Notes under the pieces: model-generated
Database searches by the model: none
Told to the model about the DNA's origin: nothing
The model's input: only the letters and a program-made list of their open reading frames with translations
Assembly (NCBI GenBank): GCA_947174685.1
Contig: CAMWJY010000001.1
Location: 1-25,872, forward strand
Direction of reading: 5' to 3'
Origin: an uncultured Mollicutes bacterium
GTDB taxonomy: Bacteria; Bacillota_I; Bacilli_A; Acholeplasmatales; Anaeroplasmataceae
Length of the DNA stretch: 25,872 nucleotides
Program-made: the position numbers and the translations under genes
Shown here: one piece after another, positions 1-25,872 of the stretch
Layout: every line of letters begins with the position of its first letter
Numbering within the stretch: the stretch's first letter is position 1

Positions 1-24
1 CTAAACTATAGCTAATTAAAAAAA

Positions 25-40
25 TTCCAGTTGACTGGAA
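25..40. other. Inverted repeat TTCCAGT-tg-ACTGGAA, either an operator or a hairpin/terminator
   Basis: Perfect 7-bp arms at 25-31 and 34-40. Flanks CTAATT (12-17) and AATTAG (41-46) are also complementary. The A7 run at 18-24 would be a U-tract on the minus strand. Function not resolved. Confidence 0.3.
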
Positions 41-133
41 AATTAGATGAGTCTTTTATATGTTTTATTTCGTTGTTTCTGATTCTATACTATATGTTTG
101 GTAATTATTAGACTTTTGTTATTTATAGATTTA

Positions 134-142
134 TGGTATAAT
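134..142 (+). promoter_or_regulatory. Extended -10 promoter element (TGgTATAAT) for ORF1/ORF2
   Basis: Perfect TATAAT at 137-142 preceded by TG at 134-135, about 35 nt upstream of the likely start. No convincing -35 at 17 bp spacing. Confidence 0.6.
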
Positions 143-177
143 AATTGTCGAAGATTGCTAAGATCGGATGTGTTATG

Positions 178-8533: not shown

Positions 8534-11500
8534 ATGAAAGGATCTTCAAAAAATATTTTAAGAAAAGGAATAAAGCTGATTGGTTTGCTTGCTATGATAT
8601 TGGCAATCGCCTTTATCATTCATAAGCCACTTCAAGAATCTACAGATTTTATAGACGAAGAAGAGTTTGTGCCTCAAGAGCAAACAGATAGAATAAATTT
8701 GGCAAGTACTGCTCCTAACAGCGTAACAGATACTGTTTCTAGCAGTTTGACAGATATTGTTTCTAATAGTGTGGAGTATATTGAGCCGTCATATTCTACA
8801 ACTTCATATAGTATTAGCTATAGTGGAAATACTGATGGTGTGAATACAATCACGTTAAATTATATGTATTTTAATGCATCCCCTGGAGGAAACATTCAAA
8901 TACCTTCCAATTATTATTCAGGTAATACAAATTATACAATAACACGGATTGCAACGAATTTCTATATTCGATATTCTTCATATTATTCATATTATCTTTA
9001 TCCATCAGTGGTAAAATTGCCTGCCTCTATAAGACGTATTGAAAATAATGCGTTTGCACAAAGTTACTTTAATAATACTAAATTTGACTTATCATTGTGT
9101 ACAAACTTAGAATACATTGGTACAAATGCCTTCTATACAACTTCTTCTGAAAATAATCGTAGTATTGTGCAAATAGCTGAATATATGCCAAATCTTACAG
9201 AAATTGGAGAGAATGCCTTTAGAAATGCATTTAAAGTGGAATATGATACAAACGATAGTATGAATATCATGAGCATCAAGCGTATTGGAAAGTATGCTTT
9301 TGGAAATGATACAAACACATCTTCAGGATATTCCTATACTGGTTTACGTGGTATCGTATTTGGAGATTCTTTGGAATATATGGGAGATTATGCTTTCTAC
9401 AATAACGATGGTCTAGAAGATATAAATATTCCAGCAAGTTGTCAAGCAGTTGGCGCATATGCATTTGCTAGCTGTCAGAATATGATTACTGCAACGGTAA
9501 GAACACCGAAAATTGGTACAGCTGCCTTCAAAGATGATGCATCCTTGGTTTCTGTGCGTATAAGTGATTTGACAGAAGAAATTCCTGATTATTGCTTCCA
9601 AAGCTGCAACGCTTTGAGTACAGTCACATTATATCCAAGTTATGATGATATTTCCTTAAGTACTTCTTTAACGAGAATTGGTAAGAATGCATTTAGTAAT
9701 ACAAACTTAAATACATTTACCCTTCCTCAAAATGTTACAGAAATAGGAGATTATGCTTTTGCTGATTGTCGTGGTATGATCGCATTTGATTATTCTATAG
9801 CAGTAGAAAACATGAAGTTAGGAAATGGTATCTTACAAGGCTGTTCCAATATTGAAGAAATTGTAATTCCAGGAGATTTATTTGATTCCTGTGGTATTGA
9901 TTTCTTACGAGATGCAACCTTGCTTTCTAAGGTTACTTTCTTAAAGCAAAATGTTTTAGAGCCAGGCTTCTTTGCAGGATGTGCAAATTTAACAACAATA
10001 ATCTTTGCTGCAGAAGATCCTATTACTCGTATTCCTGATGAGTATTTTAGAGATTGTGTTAAATTAAGTGAATTATCTTTTGTTGATACCACTGGTACAC
10101 ATCATGGTGAATTATCAAGAACAATTGAATCAATTGGTGCATATGCATTCTACAACACTGCTTTTCCAGAAATTACAGTTTCTAATACTGTTGACAGTGT
10201 TGGAAATTATGCATTTGCCAATATGCAATTATTAACATATGCAAGTGTGAATTCAAAAGATATCAGCTATAGAATGTTCTATGGTTGTCCATATTTAGAG
10301 ACTGTTTATATTGGCTCTAATGCTTCAAATGTAATTAAGAAAACAGAAGAGAACATAAGCTCATACGAATTTAATTATAGTACAAATGAGGAAACAATAA
10401 TAAACAAGACGGTTCAAAAAAATGCCGCTTTTGCAAGTTGTATTCGTTTAAATAATCTTACTCTAGAGTGTCCAACCCTAGGTGCTTATATGTTCGATGG
10501 ATGTCTAAGCTTAGAAGAAGTGGAATTAAAAGCGACAATTCGTAATGTAGAAACACATGCCTTTGCAAATTGTCAAGAATTAAGCAGTGTAACTTTACTT
10601 ACTAGTGCATTAGGTGAATTTATGTTCGCAAATGATACTAAGTTAAAGAATATCACCTTAAATCCAAACACAACTACAATCCCAGCACATGCTTTCTATC
10701 GTTCAAACCTAGAATCAATTTCTATCCCATCCTCTGTTACTACAGTTGGAAATTTAGCATTTGCATATTCAATATCTTTACAGTATGCAGATTTGAATTC
10801 ATGTCAAATGATTTCACCTTATATGTTCTTCAATTGTATTGCATTACAGGAAATTGAAATCCCTGCAAATGTTGGCGATAATGTTGGAGATTATGCTTTT
10901 GCTAATTGTACAAATTTAAAAAATGCAATTATTCATAATAGCAAGATTAGTAATTATATGTTCTATAATGACCCATTGCTTTGTGCGCCTTCTACAAGTC
11001 ATCAGACTTTAGTTTTAGGAAGCAATATTCAAACGGTTGGTCAACGCGCTTTTTCAAAATCTGGTGTTACAAAGGTTGAGATAGCAGCAGATCAAATCAG
11101 TAATTATATGTTTGAGGATTGTTTAAGTCTTCAAGAACTTACTATTGGAATTGATGATGGTACTGGTTCATTTGATGCACCTTCTCAAATTGGTTCTTAC
11201 GCATTTAAGGGATGTACTCATTTGAATAGTGTTACTTTAAACATTAGCAAAGTTGGTTCTCATATGTTTGATGGCTGTAATAGTCTTACTTATCTAGTCT
11301 TAGGAAAGCCTATGCAATTGATTGATGAATATGCATTCGCAAATTGTTCTAGTTTAGCAACTGTAAGTACTACAGACCTTACAAATTTAACTGAAATCAA
11401 ACAATATGCATTCGCAAATTGTATTAAATTAAATTCTTTTGTAGTTCCTGATTCTGTTACGAAATTAGGCTTAGGTGTGTTTAGCAATTGTGCAAGCCTT

Positions 11501-14500
11501 AATACTATTACCATTCCTTTTGTTGGTGAAACATTAAATGCTGCAACCACAACTCAGACTGGTTCTACTAGTACAGTATTTGGCTGGATTTTCGGTTCAA
11601 TAGCTTCAGATTCTTCTGCTAGAATTACCAGCTATTATTCAGATACTGGCAATGTTTCATATTATGTTCCAACAGGATTGAATAATGTTATCATTACCCA
11701 AGAAAAAATTGTTATTTATGGTTCATTCTATGGGTATACAATGATACAATCTATTAATATCCCACTCAATACAGAAATCATCCAATCAAAAGCTTTCTAT
11801 GGATGCGAGGGATTAACAGACTTTGTTGTTCCATCTACAGTGAAGAATATTGGTACCGAAGTATTGGCTGAATGTATTGGATTGAGACAAGCTACATTAA
11901 ATTGTAATATTATGGGAACAAAGATGTTCTTCAATTGTGTTAAACTACATACAGTTCACTTGAAAGAAGTTAAATATGTTTCAACCTCTGCATTCCAAGG
12001 CTGTGTAGCATTAGAAATAGTAGACTTGAATCAAGGCAATGGTAGCTTAGGCAATATTTGTACAACTATTTATGAAAAAGCCTTCTATGGATGTAGTAAT
12101 CTTGTTACCCTTGAATTCCCATCTACGATAACACTTATCGATTCTATGGCATTTATGGATTGTGTGAAATTATCTTTTATCACATTACCAAGCAGTTTAA
12201 CTACGTTAAAACAACAGGCATTTGCAAATTGTGATAGTTTAGTATCCATTGTAATCCCTCAGAATTTATCTGAATTAGAAGCATCAATCTTCGTTAATTG
12301 CGATAACATAAGATCTGTGTTATTTACGAATGAGATTGTTGGAGAACGTATGTTTGAGGGCTGTAATACTATTCAAACAATTGAATTACAAAGAATTAAA
12401 GAAATTAAAAAGTTTGCTTTTTCAAATTGTTCTAGTATAGAAGATTTAATTTTACCAAATACTTTAACAACTCTTGGTCAAGGTGCTTTTATGAATTGTG
12501 CATCTATAAAAGAACTTGTTGTGCCAGAATCTGTTGTTTCTGTTGATGCTAGTGTATTCCAAGGCTGTACTGATTTACTTTATGTAACACTTAAAAATAC
12601 AAAAATGGGAACAAGTATGTTTGAAAACTGTACAAGCTTAAGAAATGTAGCTTTTGGAGCTCCAGAAACAGCTCCAGCTTATGCAATTTCTTCTAGAGCT
12701 TTCTATGGATGCTTTGAATTGCTATTCCCAGAATTGCCAAAAAATATTAATGAAATTGGAAGCTGGGCATTTGCTCAATGCTATAGAAATACAATTATTA
12801 ATATTCCAAAGACGATTGGAACTATGGGAGTAGGTGTATTTTGGGATATTGATGTTGAGGAAGCTATCATACCATTCATAGGTATGAATCGTGAACCAGC
12901 ATATCTTTCATATAGTGGTAATTATGGTTATTCAAGATATGTATTAGGTTGGATATTTGGTGCATCTAATCCTAGTTTGAATCCAACTATTGTGGCTAGT
13001 GGAACAAATTATACAACTCCATCTAAGGCTTATGAATGTAAAGTAAGCTATAATAATTCATATTCTTACTACTATAAGACAGAAGCTTGGTATTTACCTA
13101 AGTCTTTAACGAAGGTAACAGTGACAGATGCAAAAACTATACCATATTTTGCTTTCTGGTCAGCAGTAAATTTGACTGATATTGTAATAGAAGATACAGT
13201 AGAAATTATTCGTGAAAGTTCAATGTATAATTGTACAAGCTTAACAAATCTAGTAGTTCCATTCATAGGACTTGAACGTGGGGCTACAGGTGTTGCAAAT
13301 ACAAGTATTTTCTATGGTAGTTCTACGATTCGTTTCCATAAGAGCAGCATTGCATCATGGTTCTTGACAATGCCTGGTGGAAGCTATAGTTCTGTAGTTT
13401 ATAATGACTATGATAAAACTTCACCAGTAACTACGGTAGTTACGAGTGAACTTTCTATGCCAGCTACGACAAATTATAGTCATCCAATTCGTTATCAAGT
13501 TCCACTTTCTTTAAAAAATGTTGTAATAAGAGATTCTAATAATAAGAATTCTAGTTCTAAAAATTCTATAGGATTAGGTGAAGCTGCATTTTATAATTGT
13601 TCAATGATAAAAAATGTTACTTTTGAAGGTCATTTAGTAGCAATTGGTAAGAATGCGTTCTATAATTCTGGCATTGATTTCATTGATATTCCTAGTACGG
13701 TTGGAACTGTTGGCGAAGGTGCTTTTTCAGGCATGAAGAGCTTAGAAAATGTTATTGTTCGTTCATCAAGTATTTCTTCAAAAATGTTTGAAGGCTCTAC
13801 TGGATTAAAGAATGTTGAGATTTTAGGAACTAATGTTTCAGTTGGTTCTGCTGCATTTAGAAATTGTACATCTTTACTATCTGTTAACTTTAATCAATCT
13901 GTAATTAGTGTAGGAGAAGAAGCGTTCGCTGGATGTACGAAGTTAGAATCCTTATACATTAATAAGATTGGCTGTATATCAAATGGTGCGCTTCTTGCTG
14001 GATCTCACAATTTTGGATATTTATTCGGTAAGACTGCTGGTACAGGATTAGTTGCAAATACTACTCAGATTTCTGAAACAGAAACTGTAGTTAGATATTT
14101 ACCACAAAATTTATCTGTATACTTTATTGGTAGCGAAATTCCTGCTTATGGTTTTGCTGGTGTTTCAAGTATTCAAATAATCGATTTAGCTGAAGGCTTA
14201 ACAAAAATTGGTGATTATGCATTTAAAAATACTACAAATTTGAAGACTATTAGAATCCCATCATCCTTTAAAACGGATGGAACAACACCTGCTGGTGGAA
14301 AGAATATTTTCGAGAATTCTGGCTTAGTAACTGTTTATTTTGGTGAAGGAATTTCTAAAATATATGAGGGAATGTTTGCAGATTGTAGTGAACTTACAAA
14401 TCTGATTTTCGAGTCAACAACTACTATATATGAATACCGCTATATTTCAAACAATATATTCGAAGAATATAAAAAGGTAGGTTATACAGGTCAATTTATT

Positions 14501-17500
14501 TCTACAAATCGCTTAATTTGTGGTGGTAGAGATTTGACTGTAGGTACTGCAGATGACATTGAAAATATTATAATTGGTGGAGATTCCAAGTATTATCTTG
14601 ATAATCAAGACGGTACTTATTATGCATATGGTAAGGATACTTTGTTAGGAACATCTGATGATGTCTTAATTGGTATGGGTAATGACCAAGTATTAGGTAG
14701 CGATGATGACTTCGTTATCGTAGAATTTGGTGGTAAAAAATATAAAGATTTCTTTGATAATACCTATTGTACTATTACTATTGTAGAAGCAGAAGATGGA
14801 CAATGGAATTATGCATTTGGAATGACAAGATATACAAGAATAAATAATGCTTTTGTTGAAATTATTTTAGATGAAAAAGACCAAGCTTACATTGCTGTTC
14901 AAGATGATCAATATATTCTTTACCGTAGTACAGGCAAGGATGGAATCATTGGTACAGAAGATGACCGAATTGTTTTCTTAGGATTAACGGGTACAGAATA
15001 TACTAACATAACTGATGCAATTATTTATGATAGTGTCTTTGTTTGGGATGGCAAATTATATTATGATTATAGAGATAATACTTATCAAGAAATTGTTGTT
15101 TCTTCTACAGATGCCAATGGCTTTAGATTAGAAGAAATCTTTGGTGCTGGTCCAGATGCAATCATTGGTACAGAAGATGATATCTCTAAGTATACATCTA
15201 TAACTTTTGATAAGATTCAATCAGATGATTCTTTAGCGGATTATGGTAAATTATTATCTACTATCGATCAGAAGGCATTACAAGAATATACATACCAACG
15301 CATTATTACTGGCGATGATGGTACACATTACATTTATTTGCCTTGGGCTTCTTATTTGAATGAGCCTTCTTATTTAGGCTGTGGTAGAGATGGTCTATTA
15401 GGTACTGACGATGATATTTTAGGCGCTACAACAAACTTTAATATTGTTGTTGAAACTCCTAAACCAGAAGAAGAAATTATCATTCCAGTTGTAAATACGA
15501 CAACCTATAGAGTTTATGAATATAGAAGATATGAAGATAACGTTATGGCAAATACAGTTAAAATAATAGAAGAAGAAGCCTTCATTAACTGTACGAGCTT
15601 AACAAATTTAGTTCTTTCTGCACAATTGGTTGAAATTCATGACAAGGCATTCTTTAATAGTGGCTTAGAAGAAATAACAGTTCCTTCTTCAGTAGAATTC
15701 CTTGGTAGACATGTATTTGCTGAAAATAAGAGTTTAGTAAATGCAGTCATTATGTGTGAAGTCATTGGAGAATATATGTTTAGTAAGGATGAAAAACTTG
15801 CAAAAGCTTCTATCGCATATAATACAAGAGAAATAAGTAAAGGTGCATTTTATGAATGTAAGTCTTTAAGAATCATTACTTTCCATTCTAATTTCATTCA
15901 AGATATTCATTATGAATTGCCAGATGGATATTTCCCTGATGGAAGTGAGCCTTCTAATGGATCACCTGATGAACCAGAGGATCCTCTGCCGGGTGAGGAC
16001 TATGTTACATTCTTAGTTCGTAGAGCTCAAAGCAGTGCTGTAACTGTTGAAAATGGATTAGATAATAAGGAAGGTACTGCAGACGATTACTATAGCTATG
16101 GTAATTATTATAAACTAATTGGTATTGACTTAGTTGCTCAAACAATGGATGATATTGTTGTATTAATTTATGATGGCGCATATTATGAAGTAGTAGGTTA
16201 TCAAAATTTAAATAAAACAATTAACCTATATCGAAAAGTGACTTATTCTGCAGGAACAAATTCATTTATTTTTGGTGATTATTTCTTAGGAAATAGCAAT
16301 GGTGAATTCTCTTTAGAAAATCAATCAGTAACATTAAATTTAATAGAGGATGCAAGTGGTAATTATTCCTATAAAGTGGGTAATTTAGTATATGATTATG
16401 GCCAAGATGGTAAGCTTGGTACTACAGATGATGTCATCACTATTACAATTGATCAAACGACCTATGTTGTAGTAGAAATTGAAGGATCATATTATACTGA
16501 ACTTGCTACAAATGTTTATTATGAAGTAGATGTTGATTCCTTAACACTTAGACTTGTTTATTATGATGGTACAAGCTTTGTAGATACAATTGCATCTATT
16601 ATGAATCAATACTATTTTGTAAATGAAAATCACACATTACAATTGATTTCTAATGGCTCTATTGAAGAAGATGTTTATATTTTAGATAATAACATTTTAG
16701 TTTCAGTAGAAGAAAAACAGCCTAATCAATTCTTTGAATTCTTAAGAGGTAACTTCTATCGTTTATGGCAATATTCCAATAATCAGTTTAGATCATCTAT
16801 TGTTTGTGTAATGGATGAAGAGTTTGAAACTTTAGAAGATGCAGTATATTTAAGAGGAAATGATACATATGCTGTCTTCCTTGGAAATGCTTTATATCAG
16901 GTTCCAGGAGCTGATGGACTTTACGGTACAGATGATGATGAATATATCATCAATGATAATCCAACAGAAAATGTTGGTGGTCTAGTTTTCGTGTATCGTT
17001 CTGATGGAAAATACTATCATTATCATAATTTCAATATTTACTTTGTATTAGATTTAGATAATTATGTTTATAGCTATGTATGTGCTGGTCTAGATGAAGA
17101 TCCAACTACTGAAAGTGATAACTTCACAAATGTTGTTATAGGAAATGACGGTAACTTCTATTTGAACAATGAAGACGGAACTTATTATACTGTAACTAAC
17201 AGCAAATTAACTGGTACAGCTTCTGATACATTGGTTTGCCCTCAGGATGCTACAACTATTGGCAATCCAACAGATTATGTATTAAGAAAATATAATGAAG
17301 AATTCTATAGAGATTATTTAGATAATACCTTTGCAAAAGTTGATTTTGTAAAGCAAGGTAATTATTGGAAGGCTCAATTATCTGATGAACGTTTTGTAGG
17401 TACAAATACAGGTGCATTAGATCCTACAATTACACCAAGAATTACAGTGGAAAATAGAAATGGATTAGTGTATATCGATAATCATGATGGTACATTTACG

Positions 17501-20500
17501 TTATTAGGTAAAGATAATCTATTTAATACTGCTGATGATACACTTCATTTATTAATGGAAAATCAAGTTGCAGATGCAGATGATCCAAAGGTTGTTAAGG
17601 GATCTTACGTAAGTCAAGGTTCATCTGAAGAAGAAACGTATTATTACTTAGATATGGGTGATAATCATAACGTATATCGTAAGTATCAGATTTCTGGAAC
17701 AGAAGGAAATTATGAATATACTGACTTAGGTTTAATTGCAGCTAACATTGATTTTAAACCAGGTAATGTAAATGATGTTACTGCTTTCTATAATGAAACT
17801 TTAAAAGCATACTATTATTTAGATTCTTCTAGTGCTAGAAGAGGCTATGGTGAAGATGGTATTCTATATGGTTCCGGAAAGAATCAAGATTCCAAATATG
17901 TCATGGCTGATGGAAACTATGTAGATGTTACAACAATCACATTAAATGGTGTGGCTAATCTATATCATATTAATGCGGATAATACATATACAAAATATAT
18001 AGAATTAGATACACCTGTTGATGGAAATACGCATAGAGTAGACGGCTATGTTTGCTTAGGAAGTGACCGTGTTCTTCAAAGCACCGATTCTACTGATGTA
18101 GTAGAAGTCATTGTTAATGGTGAAGTGCTTCATTTCTTACATATAGCAGGAATGCCAACATATATTGCTGCTGGTGAAGATGGTTTACTAGGCTTTGGCG
18201 ATGATGATATTTTATGTCATGTTGGAACTGGCGGAATAGAATTCACAGGTGAAGGCTCAGATGATATCCTTGATATCGTTGCTGGAAAAGAAGATGAATA
18301 TTATTATAAGCATGTTGCAGGAAATATTTATCAACGTATTGAAAGTGGTGTATTAGGACGTTATGTTGCAGCTGGACTTGTTTCAGGTGAATACTGTGTT
18401 GGTACAGCAAAGGATTTAGTTCAAAATACAAATGATATTCAAAACATTACTACAGATTATGTAGAATTCGATTCAAATAACTATTTACTTGCTACAGCTG
18501 ACGGAATAATTAGCTTTGAAGAAAGTCAAATGGTACATACTTCAAATATTAATGACCCAGCTACTTATGTACTTGTACATAATGGTAAGGATAATACTTA
18601 TCATACTGCTGATGACTACATTGTAGTAGATGGCATAGCAACATTCGCACAACAAGATGGATTAATTGGATCAACAGATGATTTGACAAATGTTGTTTTA
18701 GGCTTAGACGAATTACCTTATGAATATGATTCTGTTAAGGATATTTATTATACCTATACTTTATCAGTAGATAGATTTGTTGAAGCCTTTGACGGAAATT
18801 CAAATCGTATCGCTCTATATTCTTCAAATGCTGTTGGCGATAGTGAGGATAAGACTTTAACTGCTCTAACTTTAAATGGCACAACTCAATATTATTTACA
18901 AAATAATTCTACAAGCTTTTATACATATGCAACAGGTACTATATTAGAATATTTAGTTCATGTTGGCTTGAACGATGACGGAACAGCTGCCTCATTAGGA
19001 AGTGTTTATAACTATGCAATGGTTGGCAATACTGCTCACTTTGTTGGTCTAGATTTAAGAATCGGTACAAGTGATGACTTGGTTGCGTTCTTAGGAGAAA
19101 ATGATGAACGTCCATATACATATGTTGATTCTATAGATCATAACATTTATATTACATATGATTTAACAACTTATACAGAATTACCTTCCCCTACAGGCGG
19201 CAAGTATATCATTTCTGCAGGTAGTGACAGAAGAATCGGAACAGATGATGATATTGATACTGTTATTCAGGTATCTGGTCACTATTATTATACAGATATG
19301 GATGGCTTGTATTTCACATCACCTAATAATATATTAGGATATTCTGACATGAGAATGTATGTTGGCGCTGATGGTGAGATAGGTACAAAGGATGATTACT
19401 ATAATGTTACTCGTTATCTACCTGGTAACCTTGGATACAAGGCAACCTTCGTTGGACCAGATGGCTATTATAGCGGTGGTGACGATTTAATTGCAGTTCT
19501 AGGTGTAAATCAATATGCTTACTATGCACTTACAGATGCAAAGAAGAATCAATACAATAACTTATATAGACGTTATAGTATGGATGAAATGTCTTATATC
19601 TCATTAGTTGGTGATACAATTTGTGGTGGTGCAAATTGTCGTCCTGGAGATTCTGATGATATTACAGAAACTAGTGGCAAATTGGTTCACGCACAAAATG
19701 GTGATTGGTATTTGACAGTTGAAGGTAGTACAAAAGAGTATTTGAATAAGAGCTTTGATGGTTTACTTGGTACTGCAGATGATAAACACATCTTTATTGG
19801 TGAGGATGCTGAGCTTGGTACTTATGACGATTATTATTGGATTTTAATTGATAATTTCAATCGTAAGGTATTCCCAGGTACAACACCTATATTAGACAGT
19901 GATACAGATGAAGTAAAAGAGTGGAAGAGATTCCATGGTGATGACGTATTCTTTACTGAAGATGATTATTATAGTGTTCCATCTGAACAAATTGTTGAGG
20001 TTGAAAACCAAACTCCTTATTCTCTAGAAAGTATTCAGGATTATGCATTCTATAATTGTGTTTCTTTAGAGCATTTACAATTATATTCTCCTGATGATTT
20101 CAATACTTATCAAAACTTAAATACTTTAGGTTCCTATGCTTTTGCTGGATGTACTTCTTTAAAAGAAATGATTTTCCCTTATACTCTACAAGGAGATAAA
20201 TTGACATCAGCAGATGATACTGGATATGGTGAATATATATTTGAAGGCTGTACATCATTAGAGACTGTTACTTTCAATGAAACATATTTAAGCCATGCTA
20301 CCTTTATTCCTAAAGGAATGTTTAAAGGATGTATCTCTCTATCTGAATTATACTTCTATGATTCCTTAACTAAGCTTGAAATGAATCATTTCTCACCTTA
20401 TCTTGAGGAAATTAGAGAAGAAGCATTTATGAATACATGGGCTATGGATGAGGATGGCAAGCCAATTTCATCAGATCCAGAGATAGGAAGCGTTGTAATT

Positions 20501-23500
20501 GAAAAATCTACTCTTAAGGTTTTAGAGCACGCATTCTATAATTCAGACATTACTCATGTAACCTTTAAGGCTGAAGAACAGATTGAGTTTGGTTCTGAAG
20601 TATTTAAGAATTCTAAAATAGAATATGCAGAATTCAATTTTATAGAAACATTTGCTTATCGTATATTTGATGAGTGTATATATTTAAGCACAATCTATAC
20701 ACATGAAAATGGAGTAAAGCTTGAGAAAAATACTTTATCAAGTGATGTGAAAAACATTGAAGAGCAAGCATTCAGAGGAACAATTGCTCTAAAAGAACTT
20801 CATATAGATGATGAGATAGATTATATTGGTGATGAAGCATTTATAGGAACAGGATTAGAGTCTATTCGTATCCCTTCATCCCTATCAAAGGAAGATACAG
20901 AAGATCATTTAGGTGTATCTGTTTTTGAGAATGCAAAATCATTGACTTATGCAGAATTTGCTTATGGTACAGTAATCATTCGTGATAAATTATTTAAGAA
21001 TTGTACTTCCTTATCAACTTTACAATTCTATGATTATGAAGGAAACCAAACAGGGGTCGCTGTTACAGCAAATGAGGGTATTTATGAGGTTGATTTCGTA
21101 GCTAAGGAAGATTATGTAACCTCTGGTACTGTTACGGCTCTACAATTAAATACTTTCGCAACAACTGTAACTACAGTGGAGCAATATGCTTTCTATAACT
21201 GTCCTTTAAATGGTATGATTGATGGATCCTATACAGATACTATTCATACAATCACATTTACAAACAGCTTGACAAATCTTGGTGATTATTGCTTTGCATA
21301 TACTGATATTGAAAGTATTGCAATTCCTTCAAGCATAAAGCAAGAGAATATCGGTGATTGTGTATTTGCACATTGTAAAAAACTAAAAGATATTGTCTTT
21401 GAAAATGAAGGCCTTGGTAATCAAATGTTCTATGATTGTACAGGTCTTATCAGATTAGAGTTCCCAAGTGGAGTAACCTCTATTGGTGCTTACGCATTCC
21501 AAAATTGTACCGCTTTGGAGACTGTTATCATTCCTAAGGACGTACAATATATTGCAGAAGGTGCTTTTGCAAACTGTATAAAGATTTCACAGCTTACCTT
21601 ACCATTTATTGGTTCTGAGCGTGGAAGTACAGGTGAAGAGGGATTATTTGGTTGGATTTTTGGTAGTAATCCAGTTGATACTATTGAGCCTACAAGACAA
21701 TATTATTCTCAAACTGAATATAAGGATAACTATATCCCAGTTACAATTCAAAGAATCACAATTACTGATGAAACCTTAGTTAGCTATGGTGCTTTCTATA
21801 ACTGTGTATTAGAGTATATTAAGCTCCCAGATTTACAGGACAAAGATGTAAATGCAGATAATGTTAGTCAATTGGTACGCATTGGCGATTATGCATTCTA
21901 TAATTGTCCAAATCTAGATACTGCATTAATTCCTACTCAAATTACTGCTATCGGTAATTATGCCTTTGCATACTGTGTGAATGTAGAAAACCTAGCGCTT
22001 CCAGCAGGCTTAAAGGAATTAGGTAATTATTCTTTCTATCATTGTGAATCTTTACCTACTATTACAGTTCCATCCTCTGTTTCATCTAGTTTGATTGGTA
22101 CACATGTATTTGCATACTGTACATCAATTCATACTTTATATTTGGAAAATGATTCATTGGGTGCTAAGATGTTTAGTAACTGTATTAGCTTAGTTTCTGT
22201 TGTAATTCCTGTTGGAGTTACGACAATTGAAACAGCAACCTTTGAAAATTGTACAAGTTTAAAATATGTTGCTATTCCAGAAACTGTAACTGAAATTAAC
22301 GAAGCAGCCTTTAAGCAATGTGCTTCATTAGAGGTTTTAATCTTACCATTCATTGGATCTGAACGAGGAAATTCTGGTACGCCTCAATCCTTATTTGGAT
22401 GGGTATTTGGTACTACTGGTTCAGCAGCTGATTCCTTTGATGGTGCACAAACAGTAAATCAGGTTTATGCTGCATCTAAATCTAGAAATGTCTTAGTACC
22501 AAGCACATTAAAAGAAGTATATATTACAGATGAAACTGTGATTGGTTATGGCGCATTCTCTAACTTCTATATGTTAAAGAAAATCGTTATCTCTCAAGAC
22601 TTAAAATTCTATGGAGATGATGAGAATCATACATTTAGTTTTGATTTACAGCGTGATGAAGATGAAAATGTAATTGGTGTAACACTTCCACTACAGGATG
22701 CTACCTTATATAATGGTATGTATATATATAAGGATAATACATATACTATGCCAAATCAGGCTACACCTTTAGATGAAGAAGAATCATTGAGTACAATGAT
22801 TGATTTCTATAGCTTATATGTTGATACAAATATTGCACATATTTATCCTTATGCATTCTCTAATAATAATGGATTGACTAATGCTTTCTTAGGCGTTACA
22901 AATATAGCAGATTCTAGTTATGCATTTAATGATTGTTCTAAATTAGAGTATTGTTATATGCCTGATGCTACAGGTACCCAAGCAGATAATATGTTTGCTT
23001 ATTGTACAGGATTAAAGCGTGTTATCATCCCAGATACAATTAATATCTTAGGTGAAGCTGCATATCGTTGGTGTTTGAATATTGAATACTTCCAAGTACC
23101 TTATCTTGGTCGTGATGGCGGTACGCTTATTGATGGTAAGAGATTCCAGCAAACAATAGGCTATCACTTTGCTCCAGATGAGACTTATAGAGGAAGTGAA
23201 TCTACTTATTATAATAGAAATATTTCTTCTTATTGTGGTGGTAATTTCACCTATGATCCTACCGCTCCAGATTATAATTCTTATTATGGAAGAACTTCTA
23301 TACGTTATGTGCCTAGAAGCTTTAAGCTAGTAGTCACTTTAGATACACGTCTAACTTATTCTAGTTTAGCACAAATGGGCACTGCATTAACTGAAGTATA
23401 TTTCTCTGATCAATTAACATATATAGAGTCTAATTTCTTTACTAGTACACCTGATGTAAAGAGACTTGGTGTATGGGATTCTACTAATTATCATATTAAT

Positions 23501-25872
23501 GAAATTCCAGAAGGCCAAGCAAGATTTACGGATAATTTATTAACTATTGCAGCTCAAGGCTTTGCTGGTTGGCATGGTCTAAAGGATATTGTAGTACCAA
23601 ATAGTGTACAAATGATTGGTACAGATGCATTTGTTAATACAGGTCTTGTGAAGATGGTTTTACCATTTGTTGGTGTAAGTAGACCTCAGGATCTTTCAAA
23701 ATATCCTACAGGAAATTTAGGATTAAATGCTACTTTTGGTTGGTATTTTAATGAAGATGATAACAATTATAGCGTTCAAAATACTCGTTGGAATGCAACA
23801 AAGGTTACTTATCCAATTAACTCACAAAAGGTTTCTAGTTATAATCCAGATTCAGCAGTTTGGGTTCCTTCAACGTTAAGAACTGTAATCATTACAGATA
23901 CAGATACAATTGCTGATGATGCCTTTAGAAATATGTCAATGATTCAAAGAATTGTCCTTCCATTTGGTCTAGATACAGAGGATGAGAATAAGCTAGGTAT
24001 GCCACCAGTGTATGCCTCTGATGAAGCAGAGCTTTGTGATATCTCTGTAACCTCAATCGGTAATCATGCTTTTGATGGTACAGGCTTACTTGAAATGTAT
24101 ATTCCTGCAAGTGTTGATACAATAGGAGAGTATGCATTTAGTAATAATAAATCAATGACAAAGTTTGTATCTAATACAGATGCAATTAACAATTATATGT
24201 TCTATGGCTGTACTAGATTGTTTGATGTTGTATTAGATTATATTACAGTTATTCCAGATTATGCTTTCTATGAGTGCGATGCATTAGTATCTATCCATAA
24301 TACAAGTGAGGATGATTGGAATATATTTGAGCATCAAATTACATACATTGGAGATTATGCTTTCTATGGCGCTGATCATTTCACTTACCCACTAACAGAA
24401 GCAGAAGCGAATACAACTTTAATTACTTCTATTGGCTGGTATGCTTTTGCCAATATTGCTGATATTGGTCAATCAGGCAGTGATATTGTAGTTCATTTAC
24501 CTGTTGATTTGAATACACTAGGTGAAGGTGCATTCTATAACACACCTAATATCTCTGAATTCTATATGTATGATAAGGTTACATCTATGCCTTATGAACA
24601 TACATATACGGCAGCTTCAACAGAATATAAAGGTATTTTGGAGAATGTTGCTCACTTGAGAATATTCAAGAGTGAGAGTGCAATCATTATGGAAAGAATG
24701 AACATGAATGATGCAAAGCTTGAAACATTATATATTCCTTATGTAGAAAATATAAAGGCTTATGCATTCTATGGAAATACTTCCTTAAAAGATGCAACAA
24801 TTTCTTCTGCAAACATTATAGAAGATTATGCATTCTATCATAATACATCTTTAAGAGACTTTGCCACTGGCGCTTATATTGGTGGTTCCTTTGATGCTAC
24901 AACTACGGTGTTTGATACATTAATTACATCTATTGGTAATTATGCATTTGATGGAGATACAGTATTAGTTTATCCATTTAAGAATCCTTTAAATGATGCA
25001 ATCGTGATTACATCCATTGGAAATTATGCATTCAGAGATTGTAAGTTTATGGGTGGTTCTAAAGAAGTGTCTACAACTGTAGGAGAAGATACAGTTATTT
25101 CTACTCAAGCACTTGGAAAGGCAGATGTTGTCTTACCTAAAACATTGACAACATTAGGTGAAAATGCGTTCTTAAATGATACGAATATTCGTTCATTAGT
25201 AACTCCAGAAGGATTAGTTACAATTGGTGATTATGCATTTAGAAATTGTACCGATTTACAGGAAATCACTATGCTTGGTGAAATTTCTGGTGCTGGTATG
25301 TTTAGAGGGGATACTGCGCTTAAAAATGAAGATGGAACTAAGATTCATATAGAAAAATTGACAATAATAGCAAGAGAAATGTTTGCTGAATGTATCAATT
25401 TGAAAAATATTTACTTGCCAAAGCAAGATGTTGAGACGAATGCTTTAGGTCTAAAAACTATTGGTGATTTTGCATTCTTTGATACACGTGCTGTAGTAAA
25501 TGATTTTGGTACTGATGAGTATCATGAAACAATTTATGTTCCTAATACGGTACAAACCATTGGTTCATTTGCATTCTATAATAATCAGGCTATTAAAAAT
25601 ATCTATATTGAAAAAGATTCATTATTGACGATGGGTGTTTCAACTTTTGCAAGTTGCTTTAGTCTAGAAACCTTAACTATCCCATTCATTGGCTATCGTC
25701 AAGGGGATGATACAACTTCCAATTATTTGTATTTCCCATACAATATTAATAGTGTTAATACTACTACAAAGGCTTATTCTACAACATATTATTATTATTC
25801 AACATTACATTTTAATTTCTATTTGTATGAATATGCTTACTATAATCCAGCAAATAATGCAAGAACATATAA
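8534..25872 (+). CDS. Giant secreted/surface BspA-type LRR protein with inserted acidic GxDxxxGTxDD-repeat domains (partial, at least 5779 aa, runs off the 3' end)
   Basis: ATG 8534 gives MKGSSKNILRKGIKLIGLLAMILAIAFIIHKP, a basic N-region plus hydrophobic segment with a possible AIA signal peptidase site. Manual translation gave no stop, and the last codons ...PANNARTY (TAT 25868-25870) are in the same frame. The track lists no + ORF here, which fits an ORF that lacks a stop within the window. LRR_5-like blocks at about 9008-14413, 15551-15883 and 20015-25872. Confidence 0.93.
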   Translation, partial: MKGSSKNILRKGIKLIGLLAMILAIAFIIHKPLQESTDFIDEEEFVPQEQTDRINLASTAPNSVTDTVSSSLTDIVSNSVEYIEPSYSTTSYSISYSGNTDGVNTITLNYMYFNASPGGNIQIPSNYYSGNTNYTITRIATNFYIRYSSYYSYYLYPSVVKLPASIRRIENNAFAQSYFNNTKFDLSLCTNLEYIGTNAFYTTSSENNRSIVQIAEYMPNLTEIGENAFRNAFKVEYDTNDSMNIMSIKRIGKYAFGNDTNTSSGYSYTGLRGIVFGDSLEYMGDYAFYNNDGLEDINIPASCQAVGAYAFASCQNMITATVRTPKIGTAAFKDDASLVSVRISDLTEEIPDYCFQSCNALSTVTLYPSYDDISLSTSLTRIGKNAFSNTNLNTFTLPQNVTEIGDYAFADCRGMIAFDYSIAVENMKLGNGILQGCSNIEEIVIPGDLFDSCGIDFLRDATLLSKVTFLKQNVLEPGFFAGCANLTTIIFAAEDPITRIPDEYFRDCVKLSELSFVDTTGTHHGELSRTIESIGAYAFYNTAFPEITVSNTVDSVGNYAFANMQLLTYASVNSKDISYRMFYGCPYLETVYIGSNASNVIKKTEENISSYEFNYSTNEETIINKTVQKNAAFASCIRLNNLTLECPTLGAYMFDGCLSLEEVELKATIRNVETHAFANCQELSSVTLLTSALGEFMFANDTKLKNITLNPNTTTIPAHAFYRSNLESISIPSSVTTVGNLAFAYSISLQYADLNSCQMISPYMFFNCIALQEIEIPANVGDNVGDYAFANCTNLKNAIIHNSKISNYMFYNDPLLCAPSTSHQTLVLGSNIQTVGQRAFSKSGVTKVEIAADQISNYMFEDCLSLQELTIGIDDGTGSFDAPSQIGSYAFKGCTHLNSVTLNISKVGSHMFDGCNSLTYLVLGKPMQLIDEYAFANCSSLATVSTTDLTNLTEIKQYAFANCIKLNSFVVPDSVTKLGLGVFSNCASLNTITIPFVGETLNAATTTQTGSTSTVFGWIFGSIASDSSARITSYYSDTGNVSYYVPTGLNNVIITQEKIVIYGSFYGYTMIQSINIPLNTEIIQSKAFYGCEGLTDFVVPSTVKNIGTEVLAECIGLRQATLNCNIMGTKMFFNCVKLHTVHLKEVKYVSTSAFQGCVALEIVDLNQGNGSLGNICTTIYEKAFYGCSNLVTLEFPSTITLIDSMAFMDCVKLSFITLPSSLTTLKQQAFANCDSLVSIVIPQNLSELEASIFVNCDNIRSVLFTNEIVGERMFEGCNTIQTIELQRIKEIKKFAFSNCSSIEDLILPNTLTTLGQGAFMNCASIKELVVPESVVSVDASVFQGCTDLLYVTLKNTKMGTSMFENCTSLRNVAFGAPETAPAYAISSRAFYGCFELLFPELPKNINEIGSWAFAQCYRNTIINIPKTIGTMGVGVFWDIDVEEAIIPFIGMNREPAYLSYSGNYGYSRYVLGWIFGASNPSLNPTIVASGTNYTTPSKAYECKVSYNNSYSYYYKTEAWYLPKSLTKVTVTDAKTIPYFAFWSAVNLTDIVIEDTVEIIRESSMYNCTSLTNLVVPFIGLERGATGVANTSIFYGSSTIRFHKSSIASWFLTMPGGSYSSVVYNDYDKTSPVTTVVTSELSMPATTNYSHPIRYQVPLSLKNVVIRDSNNKNSSSKNSIGLGEAAFYNCSMIKNVTFEGHLVAIGKNAFYNSGIDFIDIPSTVGTVGEGAFSGMKSLENVIVRSSSISSKMFEGSTGLKNVEILGTNVSVGSAAFRNCTSLLSVNFNQSVISVGEEAFAGCTKLESLYINKIGCISNGALLAGSHNFGYLFGKTAGTGLVANTTQISETETVVRYLPQNLSVYFIGSEIPAYGFAGVSSIQIIDLAEGLTKIGDYAFKNTTNLKTIRIPSSFKTDGTTPAGGKNIFENSGLVTVYFGEGISKIYEGMFADCSELTNLIFESTTTIYEYRYISNNIFEEYKKVGYTGQFISTNRLICGGRDLTVGTADDIENIIIGGDSKYYLDNQDGTYYAYGKDTLLGTSDDVLIGMGNDQVLGSDDDFVIVEFGGKKYKDFFDNTYCTITIVEAEDGQWNYAFGMTRYTRINNAFVEIILDEKDQAYIAVQDDQYILYRSTGKDGIIGTEDDRIVFLGLTGTEYTNITDAIIYDSVFVWDGKLYYDYRDNTYQEIVVSSTDANGFRLEEIFGAGPDAIIGTEDDISKYTSITFDKIQSDDSLADYGKLLSTIDQKALQEYTYQRIITGDDGTHYIYLPWASYLNEPSYLGCGRDGLLGTDDDILGATTNFNIVVETPKPEEEIIIPVVNTTTYRVYEYRRYEDNVMANTVKIIEEEAFINCTSLTNLVLSAQLVEIHDKAFFNSGLEEITVPSSVEFLGRHVFAENKSLVNAVIMCEVIGEYMFSKDEKLAKASIAYNTREISKGAFYECKSLRIITFHSNFIQDIHYELPDGYFPDGSEPSNGSPDEPEDPLPGEDYVTFLVRRAQSSAVTVENGLDNKEGTADDYYSYGNYYKLIGIDLVAQTMDDIVVLIYDGAYYEVVGYQNLNKTINLYRKVTYSAGTNSFIFGDYFLGNSNGEFSLENQSVTLNLIEDASGNYSYKVGNLVYDYGQDGKLGTTDDVITITIDQTTYVVVEIEGSYYTELATNVYYEVDVDSLTLRLVYYDGTSFVDTIASIMNQYYFVNENHTLQLISNGSIEEDVYILDNNILVSVEEKQPNQFFEFLRGNFYRLWQYSNNQFRSSIVCVMDEEFETLEDAVYLRGNDTYAVFLGNALYQVPGADGLYGTDDDEYIINDNPTENVGGLVFVYRSDGKYYHYHNFNIYFVLDLDNYVYSYVCAGLDEDPTTESDNFTNVVIGNDGNFYLNNEDGTYYTVTNSKLTGTASDTLVCPQDATTIGNPTDYVLRKYNEEFYRDYLDNTFAKVDFVKQGNYWKAQLSDERFVGTNTGALDPTITPRITVENRNGLVYIDNHDGTFTLLGKDNLFNTADDTLHLLMENQVADADDPKVVKGSYVSQGSSEEETYYYLDMGDNHNVYRKYQISGTEGNYEYTDLGLIAANIDFKPGNVNDVTAFYNETLKAYYYLDSSSARRGYGEDGILYGSGKNQDSKYVMADGNYVDVTTITLNGVANLYHINADNTYTKYIELDTPVDGNTHRVDGYVCLGSDRVLQSTDSTDVVEVIVNGEVLHFLHIAGMPTYIAAGEDGLLGFGDDDILCHVGTGGIEFTGEGSDDILDIVAGKEDEYYYKHVAGNIYQRIESGVLGRYVAAGLVSGEYCVGTAKDLVQNTNDIQNITTDYVEFDSNNYLLATADGIISFEESQMVHTSNINDPATYVLVHNGKDNTYHTADDYIVVDGIATFAQQDGLIGSTDDLTNVVLGLDELPYEYDSVKDIYYTYTLSVDRFVEAFDGNSNRIALYSSNAVGDSEDKTLTALTLNGTTQYYLQNNSTSFYTYATGTILEYLVHVGLNDDGTAASLGSVYNYAMVGNTAHFVGLDLRIGTSDDLVAFLGENDERPYTYVDSIDHNIYITYDLTTYTELPSPTGGKYIISAGSDRRIGTDDDIDTVIQVSGHYYYTDMDGLYFTSPNNILGYSDMRMYVGADGEIGTKDDYYNVTRYLPGNLGYKATFVGPDGYYSGGDDLIAVLGVNQYAYYALTDAKKNQYNNLYRRYSMDEMSYISLVGDTICGGANCRPGDSDDITETSGKLVHAQNGDWYLTVEGSTKEYLNKSFDGLLGTADDKHIFIGEDAELGTYDDYYWILIDNFNRKVFPGTTPILDSDTDEVKEWKRFHGDDVFFTEDDYYSVPSEQIVEVENQTPYSLESIQDYAFYNCVSLEHLQLYSPDDFNTYQNLNTLGSYAFAGCTSLKEMIFPYTLQGDKLTSADDTGYGEYIFEGCTSLETVTFNETYLSHATFIPKGMFKGCISLSELYFYDSLTKLEMNHFSPYLEEIREEAFMNTWAMDEDGKPISSDPEIGSVVIEKSTLKVLEHAFYNSDITHVTFKAEEQIEFGSEVFKNSKIEYAEFNFIETFAYRIFDECIYLSTIYTHENGVKLEKNTLSSDVKNIEEQAFRGTIALKELHIDDEIDYIGDEAFIGTGLESIRIPSSLSKEDTEDHLGVSVFENAKSLTYAEFAYGTVIIRDKLFKNCTSLSTLQFYDYEGNQTGVAVTANEGIYEVDFVAKEDYVTSGTVTALQLNTFATTVTTVEQYAFYNCPLNGMIDGSYTDTIHTITFTNSLTNLGDYCFAYTDIESIAIPSSIKQENIGDCVFAHCKKLKDIVFENEGLGNQMFYDCTGLIRLEFPSGVTSIGAYAFQNCTALETVIIPKDVQYIAEGAFANCIKISQLTLPFIGSERGSTGEEGLFGWIFGSNPVDTIEPTRQYYSQTEYKDNYIPVTIQRITITDETLVSYGAFYNCVLEYIKLPDLQDKDVNADNVSQLVRIGDYAFYNCPNLDTALIPTQITAIGNYAFAYCVNVENLALPAGLKELGNYSFYHCESLPTITVPSSVSSSLIGTHVFAYCTSIHTLYLENDSLGAKMFSNCISLVSVVIPVGVTTIETATFENCTSLKYVAIPETVTEINEAAFKQCASLEVLILPFIGSERGNSGTPQSLFGWVFGTTGSAADSFDGAQTVNQVYAASKSRNVLVPSTLKEVYITDETVIGYGAFSNFYMLKKIVISQDLKFYGDDENHTFSFDLQRDEDENVIGVTLPLQDATLYNGMYIYKDNTYTMPNQATPLDEEESLSTMIDFYSLYVDTNIAHIYPYAFSNNNGLTNAFLGVTNIADSSYAFNDCSKLEYCYMPDATGTQADNMFAYCTGLKRVIIPDTINILGEAAYRWCLNIEYFQVPYLGRDGGTLIDGKRFQQTIGYHFAPDETYRGSESTYYNRNISSYCGGNFTYDPTAPDYNSYYGRTSIRYVPRSFKLVVTLDTRLTYSSLAQMGTALTEVYFSDQLTYIESNFFTSTPDVKRLGVWDSTNYHINEIPEGQARFTDNLLTIAAQGFAGWHGLKDIVVPNSVQMIGTDAFVNTGLVKMVLPFVGVSRPQDLSKYPTGNLGLNATFGWYFNEDDNNYSVQNTRWNATKVTYPINSQKVSSYNPDSAVWVPSTLRTVIITDTDTIADDAFRNMSMIQRIVLPFGLDTEDENKLGMPPVYASDEAELCDISVTSIGNHAFDGTGLLEMYIPASVDTIGEYAFSNNKSMTKFVSNTDAINNYMFYGCTRLFDVVLDYITVIPDYAFYECDALVSIHNTSEDDWNIFEHQITYIGDYAFYGADHFTYPLTEAEANTTLITSIGWYAFANIADIGQSGSDIVVHLPVDLNTLGEGAFYNTPNISEFYMYDKVTSMPYEHTYTAASTEYKGILENVAHLRIFKSESAIIMERMNMNDAKLETLYIPYVENIKAYAFYGNTSLKDATISSANIIEDYAFYHNTSLRDFATGAYIGGSFDATTTVFDTLITSIGNYAFDGDTVLVYPFKNPLNDAIVITSIGNYAFRDCKFMGGSKEVSTTVGEDTVISTQALGKADVVLPKTLTTLGENAFLNDTNIRSLVTPEGLVTIGDYAFRNCTDLQEITMLGEISGAGMFRGDTALKNEDGTKIHIEKLTIIAREMFAECINLKNIYLPKQDVETNALGLKTIGDFAFFDTRAVVNDFGTDEYHETIYVPNTVQTIGSFAFYNNQAIKNIYIEKDSLLTMGVSTFASCFSLETLTIPFIGYRQGDDTTSNYLYFPYNINSVNTTTKAYSTTYYYYSTLHFNFYLYEYAYYNPANNARTY
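14417..15550 (+). repeat. Non-LRR insert 1 (about 378 aa) with 6 GxDxxxG[TS]xDD motifs
   Basis: Motifs at 14525 GRDLTVGTADD, 14630 GKDTLLGTSDD, 14678 GNDQVLGSDDD, 14933 GKDGIIGTEDD, 15149 GPDAIIGTEDD and 15383 GRDGLLGTDDD. No LRR periodicity in between. Confidence 0.85.
15884..20014 (+). repeat. Non-LRR insert 2 (about 1377 aa) with about 16 or more GxDxxxGTxDD-type motifs
   Basis: Exact matches at 16055, 16400, 16907, 19046, 19220, 19364 and 19799, plus about 9 near matches (e.g. GKDNLFNTADD, GEDGLLGFGDD, GKDNTYHTADD, QQDGLIGSTDD, SFDGLLGTADD). Rich in Tyr, Asp, Gly and Thr. Opens with a Pro/acidic linker (LPDGYFPDGSEPSNGSPDEPEDPLPGED). Confidence 0.85.
21290..22580 (+). repeat. Internal duplication of a 248-aa LRR plus PFIG-module unit (744-nt offset) in the giant ORF
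   Basis: Colinear anchors all at a 744-nt offset: PSS (21326/22070), EN..LG..MF (21401/22145) and PFIGSERG (21602/22346). These are followed by LFGWIFG/LFGWVFG and ITDETxxxYGAF in both copies. Confidence 0.8.

Follow-up and report, generated by a model that had tools for sequence, protein, structure and literature searches.

How a protein composed of leucine-rich repeats (LRR) accommodates long segments foreign to that repeat, as spacers strung between independent LRR blocks or as modules nested within one uninterrupted coil, is the question raised by a giant gene on the stretch of DNA analysed here (the window). The window is 25,872 nucleotides (nt) long, has a G+C content of ~32%, and represents one entire contig (CAMWJY010000001.1) of a 1.24-Mb genome bin (241 contigs, 72% complete) of an uncultured Mollicutes bacterium of the family Anaeroplasmataceae. 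A sequence-only reading of the window had proposed that whole domains are plugged into one specific loop of the LRR solenoid, which would run on as a continuous rod. The analysis makes fairly probable a conserved nested-domain architecture, that is, a coil of the TpLRR class with modules nested at one of its corners. This architecture is carried by the register of the insertions, the conservation of the inserts, the occurrence of their repeat in other proteins without LRRs, and the predicted stacking of the coil across the first big insert and across one copy of a small recurrent module, named here the FGW module. The gene in question is as follows:

8534..25870, + strand: giant LRR_5 (BspA/TpLRR-type) gene with an N-terminal signal/membrane anchor; 5779 codons, then the end of the contig.

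The frame is open under translation table 11 and open at its 3' end, at least 5779 amino acids (aa) being encoded, and all eleven peptide strings quoted in the sequence-only reading were recovered at their places in the translation of 8534-25870 (+ strand). The Anaeroplasmataceae are wall-less gut and rumen Mollicutes with the standard genetic code, and the product of this open reading frame (ORF) is a membrane-anchored giant surface protein of the family. The three thirds of the protein scored 793.6, 93.1 and 606.7 bits against LRR_5 (Pfam cut-off 27.7), the giant ORF matched the same Pfam family with E 3e-243, and the phmmer comparison of the giant ORF with the solved structure 4fs7 gave E 2.9e-49. 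The repeat was analysed with a 23-column profile derived from the protein's own units, the ungapped 17-residue core I...AF..C..L..I.I being scored against a shuffled null; the two halves of the LRR unit were additionally scored separately for placing the junctions. Thus, ~105 LRR units with an uninterrupted core and modal spacings of 23, 21 and 22 residues were found by the own-profile core scoring, and their consensus, VQTIGEYMFANCTSLKEVVIPKS, corresponds to the tandem LRR_5 unit of 21-25 residues, VxxIxxxAFxxCxxLxxIxIP. A cyclic-profile Viterbi alignment with cheap insert states was also tried and dropped, as it over-fitted spurious LRR matches within the inserts. TpLRR is a recognised class of LRR (PMC4030839), and it is to this class that the repeat of the giant protein belongs.

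The positions of the inserts relative to the repeat were then read from the half-unit scores and from the formal alignment of the units, with the following features on both sides of the junctions:

14351..14419, + strand: LRR unit before insert 1, aa 1940-1962, ISKIYEGMFADCSELTNLIFEST; core score 27.8.
14420..15556, + strand: insert 1, aa 1963-2341 (379 aa) by formal alignment; all-beta, with six GxDxxxGTxDD loops.
15557..15892, + strand: five LRR units between the big inserts, aa 2342-2453; in model 1 (below) they stack on the units that precede insert 1.
15893..20023, + strand: insert 2, aa 2454-3830 (1377 aa), opening with a Pro/Asp/Glu-rich linker.
20024..20092, + strand: LRR unit after insert 2, aa 3831-3853, LESIQDYAFYNCVSLEHLQLYSP; core score 33.6.
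10085..10123, + strand: small insert at site 1, aa 518-530, with 11 extra residues.
21032..21166, + strand: 43-aa insert at site 1, aa 4167-4211.
22595..22831, + strand: 77-aa insert at site 1, aa 4688-4766.
23963..24046, + strand: 26-aa insert at site 1, aa 5144-5171.

In the regular units, three short strands are formed per turn, at columns 3-4, 9-10 and 17-19, according to the DSSP assignment of a predicted structure (model 2, described below) compared with the unit starts. Two insertion sites can be related to these strands. Site 1, the junction between columns 21-23 of one unit and column 1 of its successor, is thereby placed at the corner that immediately follows the main strand; site 2, at columns 12/13 behind 'AFxxC', is placed at the corner that immediately precedes it. 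Half-unit scoring assigned to site 1 both big inserts, the recurrent FGW modules and the four small inserts cited in the sequence-only reading, which share the junction as claimed (11, 43, 77 and 26 extra residues). The two big inserts, neither of which has an LRR_5 match, begin right after column 23 of a complete unit, and column 1 of the following unit comes directly behind them (aa 1940-1962 and 2342-2364 around insert 1, aa 2431-2453 and 3831-3853 around insert 2), so that their common register, first proposed by eye, holds on formal repeat alignment; the limits drawn in the sequence-only reading correspond to aa 1962-2339 (378 aa, nt 14417-15550) and aa 2451-3827 (1377 aa, nt 15884-20014). 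The flanking units are complete, regular and in phase, without cap-like sequence, and both big inserts are non-LRR segments flanked by LRR units of one array, as in the known LRR arrays with island regions (LRR@IR).

The idea of one specific loop is borne out for all inserts of at least 26 aa, which are at site 1, and fails for the small ones, since ~8 inserts of only 4-23 aa occupy site 2 (for example, aa 3969-3981, 4224-4234, 5309-5312, 5504-5526 and 5652-5661), with an additional 10 aa at site 2 (aa 4676) in the second subgroup of homologues described below. By the same half-unit scoring, no insert was found at the third corner (columns 5-8) anywhere in the giant ORF. The chance of all large inserts falling at one loop is ~(1/3)^5, if each turn offers three loops and the cases independent of one another number about six, and the shared position is probably due to structural tolerance rather than to chance.

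The FGW module, with the pattern 'PFIG...(F/L)G(W/Y)(I/L/V)F(G)...Y(I/V/L)PxxLxxVxI' and a length of 53-100 aa, is the recurrent occupant of site 1. Four copies in the window were confirmed by regular expression, and several further look-alikes were seen by eye; no family name was found for the module. The confirmed copies are:

11519-11770, + strand: FGW module, aa 996-1079.
13964-14128, + strand: FGW module, aa 1811-1865.
21605-21769, + strand: FGW module, aa 4358-4412, PFIGSERG...LFGWIFG...YIPVTIQRITITD.
22349-22531, + strand: FGW module, aa 4606-4666.

One full-length orthologue, G004, carries FGW modules at this corner as well, and their interiors contain expansions that vary in size up to ~200 aa (e.g., aa 6810-7006), which fits the idea of a reusable socket; the module looks like an adaptor to which other inserts could be added.

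Both big inserts are arrays of an acidic beta repeat, GxDGxxGTxDD, a motif that occurs nowhere else in the giant ORF. Insert 1 starts with TTTIYEYRY and ends with TYRVYEYRRY, and the linker of insert 2 is rich in Pro, Asp, Glu and Gly (aa 2470-2492, ~nt 15941-16009; PDGSEPSNGSPDEPEDPLPGED). Insert 1 aligns at several offsets of insert 2 with ~24% identity and, therefore, insert 2 corresponds to about 3.5 tandem insert-1-like supermodules. No Pfam or NCBIfam family was found for either big insert (E <= 1), families of calcium-binding acidic-loop repeats, such as thrombospondin type 3 or dockerin-like loops, included. A full HMMER search with insert 1 among 1.84 billion representative proteins gave 28 matches at E <= 0.001, six of them being LRR-flanked fragments of the same family and the other 22 being devoid of LRR cores; of ten of the latter scanned with Pfam, seven carry fn3, Big_2, DUF6273 or Listeria-Bacteroides repeats (Flg_new). 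Because the repeat is found elsewhere without LRRs, it can be regarded, from its sequence matches, as a rare and independent extracellular module without a Pfam model, which justifies speaking of whole domains as the sequence-only reading did. The GxDG motifs of insert 1 sit in loops between beta strands in the predicted structure (model 1, below), and the acidic character of the GxDGxxGTxDD loops suggests that they probably bind calcium; the arrays would probably be binding or adhesion heads, with an adhesive or ligand-binding role.

The second line of evidence comes from the homologues. A search for related loci found no relative with insert 1 alone and nine loci with an alignment as the query. 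Among genomes, matches were obtained in eight of 19 further ones of the same genus and in none of 21 of other genera in the order. The open frames of the same-genus orthologues are 16,138-16,498 aa long, and G004 (16,441 aa) has 275 LRR cores up to ~aa 13,740 and 24 FGW motifs, with the two big inserts as its only GxDG inserts. Seven homologous regions were compared, and they form two subgroups, with four close orthologues in one of them. All seven are collinear with the window, insert 1 following ~1900 aa of LRR and being separated by five LRR units from insert 2, behind which the LRRs resume, and in all seven both big inserts are at identical junctions, the junction residues being conserved in both subgroups. 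Insert 1 is ~350-373 aa long in the homologues, insert 2 is 1372-1374 aa long in the four close orthologues, and the identity of the inserts (55-65%) is similar to that of the LRR parts (57-70%); for insert 1, identity is 55-63% in one group of homologues and 32-38% in the other. The four close orthologues keep the linker of insert 2, which a deletion has removed in the second subgroup. For the small inserts, the two subgroups share the junctions and differ in length: the 43-aa insert is ~8-10 aa longer (51-53 aa) in the second subgroup, where the 26-aa insert has 37 aa and the 77-aa insert is shorter. The comparison of homologues proposed by the sequence-only reading returned conservation of the big inserts in seven of seven cases, without variation in presence or absence, and only the small inserts varied in length.

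The continuity of the coil was assessed in two AlphaFold2 models. Model 1 comprises aa 1767-2452, i.e., two units, an FGW-type module, four units, insert 1 and five units (12-row alignment), and has a mean predicted local distance difference test score (pLDDT) of 86.1 and a predicted template modelling score (pTM) of 0.61, with pLDDT of 91-96 and 85-94 in the junction blocks; within insert 1, pLDDT is mostly 85-93 over the first two thirds and 47-54 in part. Model 2 comprises aa 4072-4860 (pLDDT 83.5, pTM 0.72). Both show an LRR_5-like solenoid fold, the matches to solved structures of the BspA/TpLRR class having Z of 15.8-22.4 overall, with 4fs7 at Z 22.4 and 4fdw at Z 19.7. Stacking was judged by the superposition of such solved single solenoids. 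The chain 6mlx_A (TpLRR, 212 residues) was superposed on model 1 over 174 residues (Z 21.2, root-mean-square deviation (rmsd) 2.4 A), from 103 to 682 in the model and from 44 to 234 in the chain. As there are just 93 model residues from 103 to the insert, the alignment must cover the C-terminal flank too, and one continuous solenoid thus fits both flanks simultaneously. Other superpositions on model 1 were those of 4oju_A (117 residues, rmsd 3.3 A, range 172..686), 4fdw (224 residues, 2.9 A), 4fd0 (229 residues, 3.0 A) and ESM Atlas models of LRR_5 proteins (254-292 residues, 3.1-4.3 A, over 1..686). The last main strand before insert 1 continues into a long strand at model residues 190-206 (TTTIYEYRYISNN...), and the insert returns via a strand at 559-566 (TYRVYEYR), from which we infer that insert 1 would stand on a two-stranded beta stalk. 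The fold searches with model 1 (PDB, ESM Atlas, AFDB clusters) returned lists filled with LRR matches, in which no fold for insert 1 could be recognised, and the ESM Atlas feature search gave no usable match for the insert fold.

On model 2, 203 of the 212 residues of 6mlx_A were superposed (3.5 A, 283..555) with ~70 residues skipped, which are the FGW module at aa 4358-4412; the predicted coil is therefore continuous across this module, itself modelled as an excursion of a short helix and a hairpin with pLDDT of 90-95. The 43-aa insert has pLDDT of 26-36 in the same model and is probably a flexible loop, and the 77-aa insert has pLDDT of 63-85. Flanking turns that remain stacked, as in LRR@IR, are accordingly present in the AlphaFold2 models for insert 1 and for one FGW module. 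No capped, separate LRR domains were predicted on the two sides of insert 1, so that neither this outcome nor an inconsistent register, the two observations named beforehand as contrary to nesting, was encountered.

For insert 2, the flanks were predicted as separate chains (aa 2340-2452 and 3828-3947; 8-row alignments each), with an interface score (ipSAE) of 0.50 (0.47-0.53 in three runs) against 0.00 for the best control, contact agreement of at least 94% and partner pLDDT of at least 66; this was graded as weak support, and no geometry was returned. In the calibration of this approach, 58 of 80 solved complexes and two of 110 mismatched pairs passed the threshold; among passes at or below 0.60, errors outnumbered correct calls except where the guess had been likely from the start. 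The result was not counted as evidence because of this unreliable level, the lack of geometry, and the fact that uncapped LRR pieces might stack anyway. Stacking across insert 2 is inferred.

Taken as a mechanism, the nested architecture would work as follows. The body of the protein would be one long BspA/TpLRR-type solenoid with turns of 21-25 residues; where a main strand has ended ('LxxIxI[P]', columns 21-23), the chain would leave the coil at the corner, build a module of 11-1377 residues, and re-enter to start the next turn ('VxxIxxxAF'), the coil remaining stacked. The modules would be short loops, the recurrent FGW adaptor and the two acidic all-beta arrays (379 and 1377 aa), and they would project from the same corner of successive turns, along one line of the coil surface. 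The LRR geometry is ~4.8 A per turn, and a coil of ~275 turns would, if straight, be ~130 nm long. Of the continuous rod proposed in the sequence-only reading, the continuity is borne out by the models for insert 1 and for one FGW module, and the word 'rod', which depends on the overall curvature, is not established. A stronger version of the proposal, in which the TpLRR solenoid is a natural display scaffold whose one corner, often fitted with the FGW module, takes arbitrary modules of 10 to >1300 residues with the coil unbroken, is put forward tentatively, as a possibility with less in its favour than the nesting itself.

The alternative that survives best is that the inserts are spacers or hinges between independent LRR blocks, like beads on a string, and that the predicted stacking is a habit of modelling. 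The structural evidence for continuity is all prediction from shallow alignments (8-12 rows), AlphaFold may be biased toward stacking LRR pieces, and the superpositions report only the first and last aligned residues; these points weigh against nesting, and so do several others. The pTM of model 1 is just 0.61, with the poorly predicted part of insert 1 already mentioned, and across the 77-aa insert of model 2 only alignments with rmsd >10 A span both sides. The probably flexible, Pro/Asp/Glu-rich linker that opens insert 2 would also suit a hinge, and a string of domains is the usual design of giant surface proteins in bacteria. In addition, the small inserts are not confined to site 1 and use the second loop too, and the absence of any presence/absence polymorphism of the big inserts among the seven homologues leaves no natural control with an insert deleted. 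However, the units on either side of the inserts are in phase and carry no capping motif, the junction residues are predicted with high confidence, both flanks are matched by single solved solenoids with rmsd of 2.4-3.3 A, and the five-unit block of aa 2342-2453 between the big inserts, with its two raw hydrophobic ends, would be odd as a free-standing domain. On balance, independent blocks joined by the inserts are considered unlikely.

Still less likely is a trivial constraint, by which one very tolerant loop merely accumulated expansions spread by segmental duplication with no purposeful display: ordinary variation in unit length (21, 22, 23 and 25 residues) does occur at the same place, the indels among homologues are mostly outside well-scored units (85 of 105) with those inside clustering at columns 21-3 and 10-14, and the FGW modules are paralogous copies and insert 1 has relatives among the segments of insert 2, which leaves few independent events, but across two diverged subgroups both big inserts have kept their length, their junctions and, to the same degree as the LRR parts, their sequence, which argues for selection, and their repeat serves as a module in other surface proteins.

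The two other genes of the window encode proteins of the same repeat family:

145-2067, + strand: ORF1, 640 aa, BspA-type LRR_5 protein.
2083-8166, + strand: ORF2, 2027 aa, BspA-type LRR_5 protein.

The N-terminus of the ORF1 product resembles that of a lipoprotein (…LLMGCSS), and the protein contains six LRR cores; in the ORF2 product, the N-terminus carries a membrane anchor, Flg_new is matched weakly, and 16 LRR cores are arranged in separate blocks (aa 1299-1964). At the other end of the full-length orthologue G004, ~2,700 aa of non-LRR sequence are followed by a dockerin-like pair of DxNxDGxxD loops, unexpected in a Mollicute.

Non-LRR islands within LRR arrays (LRR@IR, also 'islands' or 'loop-outs') have been described as widely distributed (PMC4030839; PMC6749341), and LRR@IR proteins have been reviewed for 19 plant families, with islands of 37-76 residues (PMC4030839). 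The plant examples include the receptor kinases BRI1, PSKR, TMK1 and RPK2 and the receptor-like proteins Cf-9 and Ve1; in BRI1, a 70-residue island between LRR21 and LRR22 helps to bind the ligand, and RPK2 has two islands (PMC4030839; PMC6749341). Islands of the BRI1 type have 68-70 aa, a Cys pair and a plant-specific LRR context (PMC4030839). The giant ORF resembles these systems in that a non-LRR segment interrupts the array between turns and the solenoid carries on. However, plant LRR@IR proteins are eukaryotic receptors of ~13-33 turns with plant-specific LRRs and single small subdomains, whereas the giant protein belongs to the bacterial TpLRR/BspA class, with ~275 turns, its islands of 379 and 1377 residues are 5-20 times the plant size and string together several modules of a repeat that is also found apart from LRRs, and dozens of insertions share a single corner. 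The big inserts, as GxDGxxGTxDD arrays between TpLRR-class repeats, do not belong to the BRI1-type island family, and the resemblance to the plant islands is architectural only.

Among bacterial proteins, the closest relatives are the solved BspA/TpLRR LRR_5 proteins (6mlx, BACOVA_04585 4fs7, 4fdw, 4fd0, 4h09, 4gt6 and PcpA 4cp6), which share the repeat family and the predicted fold, their solved chains being 212-405 residues long. We know of no large nested domain in these chains. With the giant bacterial adhesins built as strings of domains, the protein shares very large size, the N-terminal anchor, repeats, acidic motifs that probably bind calcium and the dockerin-like C-terminus (in G004), but its modules are nested inside the scaffold repeat instead of following one another end to end. 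Giant proteins of Clostridia have been reported to carry LRR and dockerin domains, their nesting not being addressed (bioRxiv 10.1101/2023.11.21.568195). The literature searched for Anaeroplasma LRR proteins, or for BspA-type proteins with insertions or large nested domains, contained nothing relevant. The principle is known, but its scale here and the recurrent choice of one corner are unusual, which makes the giant protein a new and extreme form of LRR island regions.

Islands in LRR arrays have been known mainly as small (~40-76 aa) ligand-binding add-ons of plant receptors. If confirmed, the nested architecture would show how far a solenoid tolerates the nesting of domains, and it would supply an insertion site and a possible adaptor motif for the engineering of repeat-protein scaffolds. 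The GxDGxxGTxDD repeat and the FGW module are uncharacterised sequence modules and, as such, targets for structure determination. If the reading as a display scaffold were true, a single filament of 16,000 residues, ~130 nm long if straight, would carry a line of different binding heads, which would be a design of giant adhesins distinct from end-to-end strings and a template for loop-grafting. For the organisms themselves, confirmation of the nested architecture would give a structural logic to one family of giant surface proteins that lack annotation in the gut Mollicutes.

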